Positions 54,573 to 62,476 of a DNA stretch of 64,000 nt are shown piece by piece. Positions within the stretch are counted from its first letter, which is position 1. Each line of letters begins with the position of its first letter. Where the stretch lies: assembly GCA_009777575.1 (NCBI GenBank), contig WRLO01000002.1, positions 28,386 to 92,385 of the forward strand, given 5' to 3'. The notes beneath the pieces were generated by a model. The model searched no databases. It was not told where the DNA came from and was given only the letters and a program-made list of their open reading frames with translations. Source of the stretch: Candidatus Cloacimonadota bacterium (GTDB taxonomy: Bacteria; Cloacimonadota; Cloacimonadia; Cloacimonadales; WRIO01). A program made the position numbers and the translations under genes.

Positions 54573-54878
54573 ATGATAGTAACCATAATGAAAGAAAGCG
54601 ATGTATCCATATTCTTGGTAGAGGGAAAGTTGGATAGTTCTACTTCACCAAAACTACAAGAAAAATTGATGCTTGCTTTGAATGAAGCCAAAAAGATTAG
54701 AATGGATTTTAAAGATGTAGAGTATATATCCTCTGCTGGTTTGCGCGTTCTCTTGTTGGGCGAAAAGACTGCAAGGGCAACGGGAAAAAGCATGACGATA
54801 TACAATGTTCCGGATAGAGTTATGAGTATTTTCACCATGACGGGATTTGCTGATATGTTGAATATTGAGACGAAATAA
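54573..54878 (+). CDS. STAS-domain anti-sigma factor antagonist (RsbV/SpoIIAA-like)
   Basis: GKLDSSTS and DFKDVEYISSAGLR (phosphoacceptor Ser motif); GGAGG RBS. Confidence 0.93.
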   Translation: MIVTIMKESDVSIFLVEGKLDSSTSPKLQEKLMLALNEAKKIRMDFKDVEYISSAGLRVLLLGEKTARATGKSMTIYNVPDRVMSIFTMTGFADMLNIETK

Positions 54879-54903
54879 AACATTCTCAATATATTGAGGA
54901 GCT

Positions 54904-57099
54904 ATGAAGACAAAAGAAAAAGATATTTCACAAAAGACCAGCTTAAAGCGTAAAATATCATCATTATTGATGGTTTTGTCACTAACGACCCTAGTAATGT
55001 CTGGTATAATTACATTGATAGGTGTCATTTACTTAAGAATGAATACAGCATCAATAAAAAAAGATCTTGGCTATAGTGTAGCGTTAGATAGCCAGCAAGC
55101 TCTTGAATCTCTAGCTCTTGAAAAATTATCTATATTGATTAACACAAGGGTAGGATTATGCGATTCCGTTCTTATGGCGATACAAGAAAAAGTCTTTTTA
55201 ATTGCCTATAAAGCTGGTGAAATAATCAATAATCCTGAACGCTTCTTACCTGTAGTTCCTCTGCCTGCTGACGAAAGAAATCATGGCATTGTAGCGTCAC
55301 AGTTTTTAAGACCTGAAAATGTTCCATTATCAGCTGTCAGAGCGGAGGCAAATCTGATGGGAAATATCCAAGACTTGTTAGAGGGTATTTCAATTGGTAG
55401 TAGTTATGCCAAAACAGGCTATATCGGGATGGAGTCAGGTATGTTTATCATCACAGACACGGGATCAGGTTATAGAGCAAATAAAAGTTTTGATCCTCGT
55501 GTGCGTCCGTGGTATATACTGGGTAAAGAAAGTGATAAGCCTGTCTGGACCGATGTGTATCTTGATGCCTTTGACAGAGGTGAATTAATTTCTTGTGCAA
55601 TGCCTTTTTTTGATAGAAATGGCAATGTTGTCGGAGTTGCTGCTATAAACATGTATTTTGAAACTTTAGTCGACCTTGTAAAAAATACAAAATCTGGGGA
55701 AACAGGATTTGCTTTGATGCTCAACGAAAACGGAGACATCATCATTTCTGAAAATGGAGATGACGCTGTGGTTCAAGGATTGACTGAAAAAAGAACAGAA
55801 TTTTCAGAATTATTTAACGATATCATGGAAGGGAAAAACGGAATACAGAGAATAGCTCTTGATGGCAGAGAGTTTTTCTTTGGATATTCAGCATTGGAAG
55901 CATTACCTTGGCATTTAGTAACAGTGATCGATGTGATGGAGATTATATCTCCTGCTCTGAACATTAGAAACAATATTATTCGCAGAACTGATGAATCATT
56001 ATTAAGATATGATATTGTCATGTTTAGCATCGTGGCTTTATTTTTAATCTTATTTACCATTGTTCTTTTGGTGGCAAGATATGTGTCTAAAATTTTTGCG
56101 AAAACAATAAGCGAACCCATAATGAATTTAACAGATGCAGCCTCAAAGATAGCAGAAGGTAATTTTTCAGTCAATATAGACATCAAAACAGGGGATGAAA
56201 TTGAGGTTTTGGGGGCATCTGTAAATAAAATGACAGATGATCTTCATAAACATTTAGAACATAAGCTCTCTCTGATGATCGAAAATCATAGAATTTCTGC
56301 AGAACTTGATGTAGCTAACAAAATACAATTGAGCATGTTACCCTGTATTTTTCCAGCTTTTCCAGATAGAGACGAAATAGATATATTTGCCATGATGAAA
56401 CCTGCTAAAGAAGTAGGTGGTGATTTCTACGATTTCTTCTTTATTGACGATAATACTCTCGCTATAGTCATCGCAGATGTCTCGGAAAAAGGTGTGCCTT
56501 CTGCTCTGGTGATGGTTATTGCCAAAACCCTGATTAAAAGTAAAGCACAAGCTGGACTTAGTCCCAAAGAAGTGTTTGAGTCTGTAAACAATATCTTAAA
56601 TGAAAATAACGACGCAGCTATGTTTGTAACTGCGTTTTTGGGTTATCTTGATTTAAGAACTGGAGTTTTTAAGTATGTCAACGCTGGTCATAATCCATCT
56701 GTATTGGTTTCAAAACAAAAAATTGAACAGGAAAAAGATAATTCAGAAAACAATCCAATTGAAAAACAAATAGATGAGGATAATTTGCACTATGAGTGGT
56801 TAATGGCAAAACCAGATTTTGTTCTTGGAGGTTTTAGAGATATTCTTTATACTCAAAAAGAAATAATATTTGAACCTGGTAACATGCTGTTTTTATACAC
56901 AGATGGTATCACAGAAGCAATTAATAAAAACAATGAAATGTTTGAAGAAGAAAAATTGCTTGAAGCCTTAAAAAGATTTTCAAGGCTTAATGCTAAAGAT
57001 TTAACCGAATCCATAAGAAAAGAAATTGAAGATTTTTCTGTTGGAGTAGAACAGTCTGACGATATTACTTTGTTAGTGCTAAAGTATAAGGGAAAATGA
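54904..57099 (+). CDS. Membrane sensor PP2C phosphatase (Cache-HAMP-SpoIIE; RsbU-like)
   Basis: Two TM segments flanking a Cache domain (DPRVRPWY); HAMP (DEIEVL..SVNKM); GGDFYD, ADVS.KG, NAGH, YTDGITEA and DDIT motifs. Confidence 0.92.
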   Translation: MKTKEKDISQKTSLKRKISSLLMVLSLTTLVMSGIITLIGVIYLRMNTASIKKDLGYSVALDSQQALESLALEKLSILINTRVGLCDSVLMAIQEKVFLIAYKAGEIINNPERFLPVVPLPADERNHGIVASQFLRPENVPLSAVRAEANLMGNIQDLLEGISIGSSYAKTGYIGMESGMFIITDTGSGYRANKSFDPRVRPWYILGKESDKPVWTDVYLDAFDRGELISCAMPFFDRNGNVVGVAAINMYFETLVDLVKNTKSGETGFALMLNENGDIIISENGDDAVVQGLTEKRTEFSELFNDIMEGKNGIQRIALDGREFFFGYSALEALPWHLVTVIDVMEIISPALNIRNNIIRRTDESLLRYDIVMFSIVALFLILFTIVLLVARYVSKIFAKTISEPIMNLTDAASKIAEGNFSVNIDIKTGDEIEVLGASVNKMTDDLHKHLEHKLSLMIENHRISAELDVANKIQLSMLPCIFPAFPDRDEIDIFAMMKPAKEVGGDFYDFFFIDDNTLAIVIADVSEKGVPSALVMVIAKTLIKSKAQAGLSPKEVFESVNNILNENNDAAMFVTAFLGYLDLRTGVFKYVNAGHNPSVLVSKQKIEQEKDNSENNPIEKQIDEDNLHYEWLMAKPDFVLGGFRDILYTQKEIIFEPGNMLFLYTDGITEAINKNNEMFEEEKLLEALKRFSRLNAKDLTESIRKEIEDFSVGVEQSDDITLLVLKYKGK

Positions 57100-60911: not shown

Positions 60912-61996
60912 ACATTCTTTCAATAAAAAATCTCTGTAAACAATACGGTGAAAAGACTGTTTTACAAAATGTCAACATCGATATAAAAAAAGGGGAAATT
61001 ATAGCTATAATAGGACATTCTGGTTCTGGAAAAAGTTCATTATTAAGAGCTATAAATTATCTTGACCCACCAACATCTGGTGAAATTTATATTTTTGATA
61101 AAAAAATAGAACAAAAAGATATATCTTCCATTAGACAAAAAATTGGTTTGGTAGATAATCAGACTGAGTTGTTCAGCAATCTTACTGTCATTGAAAACAT
61201 GATGTTAGGGCAATTGTGTCTGTGTGGGGTTACAAAAATGGTTGCTAAAGATAATTCTATGTTACTATTGAAATCAGTAGGTCTTGTAGAAAAAGCAAAT
61301 TTTTATCCACATCAATTAACTAAAAGTCAAAAACTGAGAATTGCTATTGTCAGATGTCTTTCCATGAATCCAAATATCTTGCTTCTTGATGATCCCACAA
61401 AAGATTTAGAACACATTGCTTCAAATGAAGTAATGACAATAATCAAAAATTTAACACAAACATCTTTTCCGAGTAAAGACCTGACTATCCTGATGTCCAC
61501 TAGTGATAGAGACTTTATTCGTAATGCTGCTACCAGAGTTCTTTATTTAGATGAAATGGGTATTTATGAAGAAGGAAGCCCTGTCAAAATATTGGAAAAA
61601 CCTAAAAAAACTTTGACAAAAGGATATATAAACAATCTTTGCTCTTTTAAATATGATGTTATAAGCAAAGATTTTGATTTTGTTGAGTTTTTTAGTGCTA
61701 TCGACAGTTATTGTATTCGCTATTTTATAGAAAAGAAAACAGCTATTAAACTAAGATTATTGGCTGAAGAAATGGTTATTAATATTGTTACACCTATATA
61801 TAAGGCTTGTAAATTGAAAATGAGTTATTCTGAAAAATCAGACTCATATCTGCTCTCAATTTCTTATCTTGGTGATGATACAAATGCTCTCGAAATAACT
61901 GATGACCTAATCTCAGTTAAAATGGTGAAAAAATGCACTACAAAGATTTGGCATACATACAAAGATGGTGAGAATGTCGTAAATTTGGAATTTTAA
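60908..61996 (+). CDS. GlnQ-like ABC ATP-binding protein with degenerate catalytic motifs and a C-terminal RsbW-like domain
   Basis: Walker A GHSGSGKS intact; signature LTKSQ, Walker B LLDDPT, H-loop STSD; tail EEMVINIV..MVKK..DGENVVNL. Confidence 0.82.
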   Translation: MNILSIKNLCKQYGEKTVLQNVNIDIKKGEIIAIIGHSGSGKSSLLRAINYLDPPTSGEIYIFDKKIEQKDISSIRQKIGLVDNQTELFSNLTVIENMMLGQLCLCGVTKMVAKDNSMLLLKSVGLVEKANFYPHQLTKSQKLRIAIVRCLSMNPNILLLDDPTKDLEHIASNEVMTIIKNLTQTSFPSKDLTILMSTSDRDFIRNAATRVLYLDEMGIYEEGSPVKILEKPKKTLTKGYINNLCSFKYDVISKDFDFVEFFSAIDSYCIRYFIEKKTAIKLRLLAEEMVINIVTPIYKACKLKMSYSEKSDSYLLSISYLGDDTNALEITDDLISVKMVKKCTTKIWHTYKDGENVVNLEF

Positions 61997-62074
61997 CAGC
62001 TCATCAATATTCTAAAAAATAGCTTTTGTTGATGCAATAATGCTGTCCAATAAAGATTATAAATAGGAGATTAT

Positions 62075-62476
62075 ATGCTACCAGAAAACGAACTTTTAAT
62101 AGAGTCAATACCAGAAAACCATAGTATGGTAATGGATTTTGTCGACAGTCAAATTTCAGATTGTCCAGACGATGTCAAAGATCAAATCAATATTGCTGTA
62201 GATGAGATATATTCAAATATAGTTCAATATGCCTATCATCCTGAAACTGGTGGTGTAAAAATCCGTATCACTGTCACTGATGTTATCATATTGGAATTTG
62301 AAGACAAAGGAATTCCCTATAACCCGCTGACTGAAGAAACTCCAGATATCAATAAACCTATTGAAGAAAGACCATTAGGGGGGCTCGGCGTGTTTATGGT
62401 GAAAAAACTGATGGATTCTGTTGAATATAAAAGAGTGGGCGGGAAAAATTTGCTGATTTTAAGAAAAAAACTATGA
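62075..62476 (+). CDS. Anti-sigma factor Ser/Thr kinase (RsbW/SpoIIAB-like HATPase_c)
   Basis: DEIYSNIV (N-box), EDKG and GGLGVFMVKKLMD motifs; AGGAG RBS. Confidence 0.93.
   Translation: MLPENELLIESIPENHSMVMDFVDSQISDCPDDVKDQINIAVDEIYSNIVQYAYHPETGGVKIRITVTDVIILEFEDKGIPYNPLTEETPDINKPIEERPLGGLGVFMVKKLMDSVEYKRVGGKNLLILRKKL

Follow-up and report, generated by a model that had tools for sequence, protein, structure and literature searches.

A partner-switch operon enclosing an amino-acid-type ABC module whose ATPase carries a predicted RsbW-fold pseudokinase tail

The operon and the tail of its ATPase

We analysed a stretch of 64,000 nucleotides from the genome of Candidatus Cloacimonadota bacterium (contig WRLO01000002.1; hereafter the window), in which five open reading frames (ORFs) between positions 54573 and 62476 run in one direction on the + strand. 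Matches to Pfam and NCBIfam profiles identify them, in order, as genes for a STAS protein, a dCache-HAMP-PP2C phosphatase, a fusion of substrate-binding protein (SBP) domains with a permease, an ABC ATPase and an RsbW-type kinase. ATGA stop/start overlaps, read directly in the sequence, join the phosphatase gene to the permease gene (57096-57099) and the permease gene to the ATPase gene (60908-60911). A first-pass annotation of the same DNA had reported this order and both overlaps, on which the ORF list, the profile matches and the direct reading agree, and had suggested that the ABC module detects extracellular amino acids or amines and signals to the switch instead of importing them. Here we report that the ATPase ends in a domain that profile comparison and structure prediction assign to the RsbW fold and that is predicted to be dead as a kinase. 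We hold it to be an evenly balanced question whether the transporter is the direct partner of the switch through this pseudo-kinase tail, with the window's copy now a non-pumping signalling module.

The first gene (54573..54878) encodes a STAS protein of the anti-sigma-antagonist type with 101 residues (P0001; PF01740, 1.1e-14; TIGR00377, 1.1e-18, above cut-off). It aligns best with Bacillus subtilis RsbV, and its Ser54, within the motif YISSAGL, falls on the phosphorylated Ser56 of RsbV (6m36_B). The second gene (54904..57099) encodes a membrane sensor phosphatase of 731 residues (P0002) matched by PF02743 (1.9e-20), PF00672 (1.5e-11) and PF07228 (4.3e-45, residues 515-731). It is laid out as a transmembrane segment, a periplasmic dCache_1 domain (about 55369-55923), a second transmembrane segment, a HAMP domain (56095-56247) and a PP2C/SpoIIE domain (56296-57096). 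The metal-binding motifs GGDFYD, DVSEKG, YTDG and SDDIT are present, as in SpoIIE/RsbU-type phosphatases, and the top named NCBIfam match is SiaA, with a score far under its cut-off. The fifth gene (62075..62476) encodes an RsbW-type serine kinase of 133 residues (P0005; HATPase_c_2, PF13581 at 2.4e-20), which, aligned with B. subtilis RsbW, shows all three kinase boxes: N (E..N), G1 (D.G) and G2 (GG.G). Judged by the profiles, the RsbV and RsbW alignments and the metal-binding motifs, the STAS/PP2C/RsbW set recognised in the first-pass annotation is complete and its parts are predicted to be intact. The absence of a sigma factor gene that had been noticed in the window extends to the whole 97-kb contig, on which there is no sigma-70-family gene (Sigma70_r2). 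Seven clear ones sit on other contigs, and none was seen in related ABC-linked loci either.

The ABC ATPase (P0004, ABC_tran; 60908..61996, 362 residues) consists of a nucleotide-binding domain (NBD; 60908..61642, residues 1-245) and a C-terminal tail of 117 residues (61643..61996, residues 246-362). Its motifs were read by alignment to a solved amino-acid ABC ATPase, 4yms_J (36% identity), and to 104 family members. Walker A (GHSGSGKSS) and the Walker B Asp are kept, and five motifs are replaced, in agreement with the degeneracy noted at first reading: the Q-loop is VDNQ against a family consensus of VFQ, with Asn at the Gln position; the signature LTKSQ instead of LSGGQ; the Walker B segment with the catalytic Glu LLDDPT instead of LFDEPT; the D-loop KDLE instead of SALD; and the H-loop STSD instead of VTHE. 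With the Q-loop Gln, LSGGQ, the Walker B Glu and the H-loop His all replaced, P0004 lies outside the catalytically competent NBDs of PAAT type, and it scores 180.6 against the GlnQ equivalog, which has a cut-off of 379. The NBDs would thus probably bind ATP and not hydrolyse it. The divergence is concentrated in this domain. Compared with the canonical locus L113, the window's module has 38% identity in the transmembrane domain (TMD), 44% in the NBD and 29% in the tail, whereas the values for a canonical paralog on contig C60 of the same genome are 41%, 62% and 33%. The NBD-only deficit repeats against L116, L067 and L097, with roughly 13-19 points lost by the window's NBD. Such NBD-specific acceleration, with TMD, tail and the EAA loop of the permease retained, fits a loss of catalysis in which membrane and tail functions were kept, and argues against simple decay.

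The tail is best described as an RsbW/SpoIIAB-fold pseudokinase domain. In hhalign, a profile of 105 tails matched a profile of the RsbW proteins from these loci with a probability of 97.7% (E 2e-12), hidden Markov models (HMMs) of tail and RsbW match each other's sequences, and PF13581 is matched individually by 11 of 22 tails. Pairwise BLASTP between the tail and P0005 was not significant (E 0.22). Since the NBD dominated the Foldseek matches of the whole P0004 model, with nothing on the tail, the tail was modelled separately. The AlphaFold2 (AF2) model of the tail alone has a pLDDT of 96, and its best matches in the PDB (TM-score 0.62-0.74) are all partner-switch kinases, with SiaB (6kko) as the best, along with UsfX (8jzt/8ih8), SpoIIAB (1tid/1th8) and RsbW (6m36/6m37). 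It is from the profile match together with these fold matches that we call the tail an RsbW-fold pseudokinase. The Glu and Asn of the N box are kept, the G1 Asp is replaced by Tyr, and a deletion of 12 residues takes out the ATP lid and the G2 box, from which we infer a kinase-dead domain. In the literature, of which our coverage was incomplete, we found no report of either an RsbW-like tail on an ABC ATPase or a partner-switch operon that includes an amino-acid ABC importer.

The third gene (57096..60911) encodes the permease fusion (P0003, 1271 residues), with a lipoprotein-type signal, substrate-binding domains (SBDs) and a PAAT-type permease. SBP_bac_3 (PF00497, 1.7e-98) matches it in five stretches, three of which are complete SBDs. 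SBD-A (57687..58340, residues 198-415) keeps the ligand Arg and has Pro for the ligand Asp; SBD-B (58407..59075, residues 438-660) keeps both Arg (GITEER) and Asp (HMSD) and aligns end to end with AncQR (4zv1) and with the Thermotoga Arg-binding protein; SBD-C (59133..59804, residues 680-903) keeps the Arg and has Asn for the Asp. SBD-B alone among the binding domains of P0003 has the full Arg/Asp pair by which an alpha-amino acid is held. The remaining two stretches are half domains: one (57258..57629, residues 55-178) is matched only by the C-terminal half of SBP_bac_3, and the other (59859..60185, residues 922-1030), next to the membrane domain, only by the N-terminal half. Joined, they give a full-length alignment to a complete SBP (AncQR, 4zv1), as do those of both paralogs in this genome, and they look like one binding domain that was split or circularly permuted around the intact ones. 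This split SBD is conserved across the three paralogs (in the window, at C12:46630-50436 and at C60:5836-8103), where it encloses one to three intact SBDs. Its ligand Arg and Asp are both lost in the two paralogs with degenerate ATPases; the Arg is kept in the canonical one. The permease domain (60231..60842) is of the HEQRo type (BPD_transp_1, PF00528, 1.3e-13; TIGR01726, 1.3e-12, above cut-off) and has an intact EAA coupling loop (MEKEAAKTLG...ITLPQ), so that P0003 combines the features of a PAAT importer, namely SBP_bac_3 domains and a HEQRo-type permease with EAA loop.

The Cache domain of the phosphatase departs from the dCache_1AA amino-acid sensor motif, which comprises Y121, R126, W128, Y144 and D173 (PMC8915833). 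Aligned by eye and by spacing from RPWY, with no profile, the P0002 pocket reads F-x4-R-x-W-Y...Y...N, that is F, R, W, Y and N at the five positions, corresponding to Y121F and D173N. In PctA, D173N abolished amino-acid binding (PMC8915833). The Cache domains of a phosphatase on contig C60 and a kinase on contig C12 of the same genome, also read by eye, keep Y/R/W/D. The suggestion that the operon detects amino acids or amines is therefore uncertain: the Arg/Asp pair is complete in only one of the SBDs, and the Cache domain carries D173N.

Tail-bearing ATPases and their neighbourhoods

A search with the tail profile retrieved 1258 representative clusters at a threshold of E <= 1e-3, of which 264 remain at E <= 1e-10, and the tail stands at the C-terminal end in every listed row that spans the profile. 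The family architecture, which P0004 shares, is a C-terminal GHKL/RsbW-fold domain of about 115 residues without ATP lid on a GlnQ-like NBD. It occurs in Bacteroidota, Bacillota, Spirochaetota, Synergistota, Chloroflexota, Actinomycetota and Thermodesulfobacteriota. Canonical catalytic motifs are found in 97 of the 105 members checked, and degeneracy of several motifs is confined to six (P0004, P0008, P0009, P0010, P0011 and P0027). These six are altered at the same motif positions with differing substitutions, and none has lost Walker A. A maximum-likelihood tree groups the degenerate ATPases in a single clade with 100/100 support, set on a long stem, next to a canonical sister group to which the third paralog of this genome belongs. 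On this tree the degenerate ATPases are a derived clade and the canonical ATPase is the predicted ancestral state. The clade comprises two sub-lineages, found on several metagenome contigs, with 48-57% identity; 40 related reference genomes contained no close ortholog of the degenerate ATPase (above 50% identity).

Genes for STAS, PP2C or RsbW proteins (rsb genes) lie near 12 of about 36 tail-bearing loci versus one of 64 loci of tail-less PAAT ATPases (Fisher p = 1e-5), an enrichment of about 30-fold. In the GTDB representative sample alone the count is 3 of 16 against the same control (p = 0.024). Linkage between tail and rsb genes is real and recurrent, and it is not obligatory, since in about two thirds of the family loci no rsb gene lies closer than 10 kb. 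Two checks named at first reading have a mixed outcome: a full or partial trio does recur beside tail-bearing ATPases across phyla, and the related ABC genes do usually lie away from rsb genes, as had been named as evidence against a sensory system of this kind, yet adjacency is enriched well above the control.

Partner-switch genes adjoin tail-bearing ATPases, besides the window with its degenerate ATPase and full switch, in two genomes of the window's own taxonomic family (L113 and L116, in the order PP2C-STAS-RsbW-SBP-permease-ATPase) and in two of its own taxonomic order (L114 and L117). They do so also on termite-gut contigs (L092 and L094/95), on a Bacteroidota contig (L097) and in Paludibacteraceae (L015), Bacteroidales (L031) and Lachnospiraceae (L067). 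The STAS proteins linked to ABC modules cluster tightly by sequence, and they do so across phyla. It had been proposed that degeneracy of the ATPase co-varies with the rsb neighbourhood; this did not hold, as most rsb-linked relatives (the C60 paralog, L094, L113, L116, L114/L117, L067 and L097) have fully canonical ATPases. With 97 of 105 members canonical as well, the general system would be a switch acting on a working importer, and the dead motor a derived special case.

Two of the family loci have additional features. In the Lachnospiraceae metagenome-assembled genome (L067:783-7534), a nonribosomal peptide synthetase-like protein of 1446 residues with C-A-T-reductase layout is encoded between the STAS and PP2C genes, and a cyclic nucleotide (cNMP)-binding protein between RsbW and the permease. 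The cultured Clostridia species Anoxybacterium hadale (CP042469, L096) carries two tail-bearing amino-acid ABC ATPases 5 kb apart (1773-2876 and 8001-9080), with no partner-switch genes near either, and is a possible tractable organism for studying the role of the tail without an adjacent switch.

The genome itself (assembly of 3.76 Mb, 91% complete) holds three paralogous modules. The one in the window (contig C2) combines a degenerate ATPase with the full switch. The module on C60 comprises a PP2C phosphatase, an SBP-permease, a canonical ATPase with tail and a STAS protein, and lacks a kinase, so that STAS has no local partner of GHKL type other than the tail. In the third (C12:46630-55938, L123), the genes after a degenerate ATPase encode two response regulators and a hybrid histidine kinase with a Cache domain, and relatives of this module on metagenome contigs (L009, L090 and L091) keep the response regulator. 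This sister module beside a two-component system suggests that the same device has been plugged into a second kind of signalling pathway. In C12-type loci, one or two response regulators of 258-271 residues and a dCache hybrid histidine kinase with Hpt replace STAS/PP2C/RsbW. The N-terminal helical domain of the C12 response regulator has no match in Pfam and, read by eye, is possibly an Hpt-like helical bundle without the His. In a census with HMMs built from the window's own permease and SBP domains, the three modules had the only PAAT-type permeases found in the assembly. RsbW-type kinases number only two in the genome, P0005 and a PP2C-RsbW fusion on contig C35. There (C35:16986-19811, L121) a STAS gene precedes the gene for an 837-residue Cache-HAMP-PP2C-RsbW fusion, with a sigma-70-family gene of 251 residues about 12 kb away, and this locus may be the genome's sigma-directed switch.

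Proposed coupling of switch and transporter

We propose that the protein partner of this switch is the amino-acid-type ABC module and not a sigma factor, and that the coupling device is the kinase-dead RsbW-fold domain on the C-terminus of the ABC ATPase. Two copies of this domain would lie under the NBD dimer and bind unphosphorylated STAS or pair with the live RsbW. STAS would then occupy or leave the transporter according to its phosphorylation by P0005 and dephosphorylation by P0002. We favour the transporter as partner of the switch, through STAS or RsbW, because the tail is specifically homologous to a STAS-binding kinase family, because the C60 locus has STAS, PP2C and tail without a kinase, and because the ABC-linked STAS proteins are closely alike across phyla. 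In the ancestral system the switch would have been coupled to a working importer, and for the canonical majority of the family post-translational control of uptake is the simplest reading. In the window's lineage the NBD alone lost its catalytic motifs, with permease, SBDs, tail and switch proteins staying intact, and transport by this copy has most likely been lost. It would act as a receptor or scaffold, in which the periplasmic domains and the ATP-binding, non-hydrolysing NBDs set the availability of the tail to STAS or RsbW. We read this copy as a non-pumping signalling module because catalysis is lost with the rest retained and because the sister copy sits on a two-component system.

Signalling instead of import, as first suggested, therefore remains the best reading for the window's copy and does not extend to the largely canonical family. 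Given the RsbW-fold tail, which the first-pass annotation did not name, the transporter could plausibly be an output or a partner of the switch, and not its input only. It is tempting to speculate further that a homodimeric ABC importer has become an ATP-binding, hydrolysis-dead receptor, in which SBD occupancy is passed through permease and NBDs to a decoy RsbW domain that captures or releases STAS, with the sister paralog using the same device towards its response regulator and hybrid kinase. This fuller scenario we regard as tentative and on the doubtful side. If true, it would mean that a transporter of the ABC importer class was converted into a receptor and that the target of a partner switch recruits the antagonist through a pseudo-kinase.

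The proposed logic, with STAS on the transporter, resembles that of SiaC on SiaD, MlaB on MlaF and MalK holding MalT. The operon shares with the RsbU-RsbV-RsbW and SpoIIE-SpoIIAA-SpoIIAB systems of Bacillus its PP2C phosphatase, its STAS protein with a phosphorylatable Ser and its GHKL Ser kinase, in which the N, G1 and G2 boxes are present. In contrast to RsbU/V/W, it has no cognate sigma factor, the defining part of that system, its phosphatase is a periplasm-sensing Cache-HAMP membrane protein, and it adds a second, kinase-dead RsbW-fold domain on an ABC ATPase. The switch logic is closest to two systems in which a STAS-like protein is itself the effector (SiaABCD) or a STAS protein binds an ABC ATPase (MlaB-MlaF). 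In SiaABCD of Pseudomonas aeruginosa a small protein of the antagonist type, phosphorylated by a kinase and dephosphorylated by a membrane HAMP-PP2C phosphatase, acts on a target that is not a sigma factor (PMC7647112). The target there is a diguanylate cyclase, whereas the candidate target here is a transporter with a decoy kinase domain of its own. HsbR-HsbA and SypE-SypA are likewise non-sigma switches with a STAS-like effector, FlgM being one such target. In MlaFEDB the STAS protein MlaB is the regulatory partner bound to the ABC ATPase MlaF (PMC7367683). P0001 has weak matches to MlaB (NF033618 at 4.9e-5; 7ch8_K at 1.8e-5). Unlike MlaFEDB, with its MlaE permease and MCE protein, the window has a BPD_transp_1 permease with SBP_bac_3 domains. 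Moreover, MlaB is not known to be phosphorylated and docks on the NBD itself, a GHKL tail is not known from MlaF, and the MlaFEDB substrate is a lipid.

On the transporter side, the module shares serial SBP_bac_3 domains, a HEQRo-type permease and a GlnQ/ArtP-like NBD with GlnPQ-type PAAT importers (Lactococcus GlnPQ; 6h30, 4kqp), and differs from them in its three complete and one split SBD, its dead catalytic site and the additional 117-residue pseudokinase domain. In MalK-MalT, BceAB-BceS and PstSCAB-PhoU-PhoR the cytoplasmic part of a transporter tells a regulator its state, and the yeast proteins Ssy1 and Snf3, homologous to transporters, sense but do not transport. To our knowledge, none of these uses an RsbW-fold domain or a STAS/PP2C switch, nor are we aware of a homodimeric ABC importer that has two degenerate ATP sites and acts as a receptor.

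Several points weigh against a non-pumping signalling module. NBDs with Glu-to-Asp and other non-canonical changes sometimes retain low activity, and a heterodimer of the window's ATPase with the canonical C60 paralog is possible. No sigma factor, cyclase or transcription factor could be picked out as an output, and since the Cache domain is already a periplasmic sensor, the logic of the operon does not require the ABC module as a second one. In the many family loci without adjacent rsb genes, the tail must also work without a neighbouring switch. Furthermore, the locus was found in no RNA run, and only one termite-gut DNA metagenome holds it, with a word share of 0.17. Some of these points would suit a module that still imports amino acids, through residual NBD activity or as a mixed dimer with the canonical paralog, so that docking of STAS on the tail tunes uptake and the signal runs from Cache to a transporter that is purely output. 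For this family, a canonical ATPase beside the same switch is both the ancestral and the majority condition; the amino-acid motif is present in the Cache domains of the paralogous loci, as would suit feed-forward control of uptake; and TMD and EAA loop are conserved. The three modules have the only PAAT-type permeases found, and control of an ABC ATPase by a STAS protein has a precedent in MlaB-MlaF. We nevertheless consider continued import unlikely for the window's copy, given that five catalytic motifs were lost together with differing replacements in the six clade members, that the rate acceleration is specific to the NBD, that in a homodimer both sites would be degenerate, and that the membrane-proximal split SBD is without both ligand residues in the two degenerate paralogs.

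It is improbable, in our view, that the linkage is loose or coincidental, with the tail a generic regulatory or dimerisation domain (cf. the MetN C2 and MalK regulatory domains) and the rsb genes directed at something elsewhere. A tail without nucleotide binding could have gained any new role, and the majority of tail-bearing loci lack nearby rsb genes. However, the tail is homologous specifically to a STAS-binding kinase family, its adjacency to rsb genes far exceeds that of tail-less controls and recurs in Bacteroidota, Bacillota and the window's own taxonomic order, the window's genes are translationally coupled by the ATGA overlaps, and the STAS proteins concerned are a tight cross-phylum group. 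That the window's copy is merely drifting toward loss after triplication of the module, with no function of its own, appears very improbable. Degenerate motifs, long branches and the presence of a canonical paralog in the same genome would be expected of such a copy, whereas the intact ORFs (1271 and 362 residues), the age of a clade that has split into two sub-lineages, the retained TMD, tail and Walker A and the preserved translational coupling would not. The reading of the transporter as a signalling partner of the switch is the one we retain.

The post-translational control of ABC importers is poorly understood, and the role of partner switches without a sigma factor is open in many phyla. 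The family described here offers a concrete and directly testable physical link between the two, namely a candidate decoy kinase domain on a transporter motor. The genome also presents a natural experiment, with one copy with a working motor, one with a dead motor on the same type of switch and one with a dead motor on a two-component system. Comparing the three could separate a switch that regulates transport from a transporter that reports to a switch, and could tell whether evolution can turn an ABC importer into a receptor and nothing else.

Flanking sequence and transcription signals

The STAS gene is preceded by an AT-rich intergenic leader of 756 bp (53817..54572, + strand, about 29-30% GC). 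It contains promoter-like sites, such as TTGACA-16-AAAAAT at 54494-54521, in scans whose promoter and terminator predictions stand at background level, and Rfam had no match in the leader or the operon. Downstream, a gene of the M20 amidohydrolase/carboxypeptidase type (62498..63652, + strand) starts 21 nt past the RsbW stop. No terminator was predicted between the two in the same background-level scan, and the M20 gene is possibly co-transcribed with the operon. A Zn-peptidase gene follows on the same strand (within 62498-64000), and neither gene is conserved in related loci. The two may share the operon transcript, which would tie the operon to the release of peptides or amino acids. Upstream, the 2082-residue protein encoded at 47568-53816 is a homologue of SprA, the type IX secretion translocon (PF14349 at 1.8e-29), which together with the termite-gut metagenome source is compatible with a gut bacterium of the FCB group.

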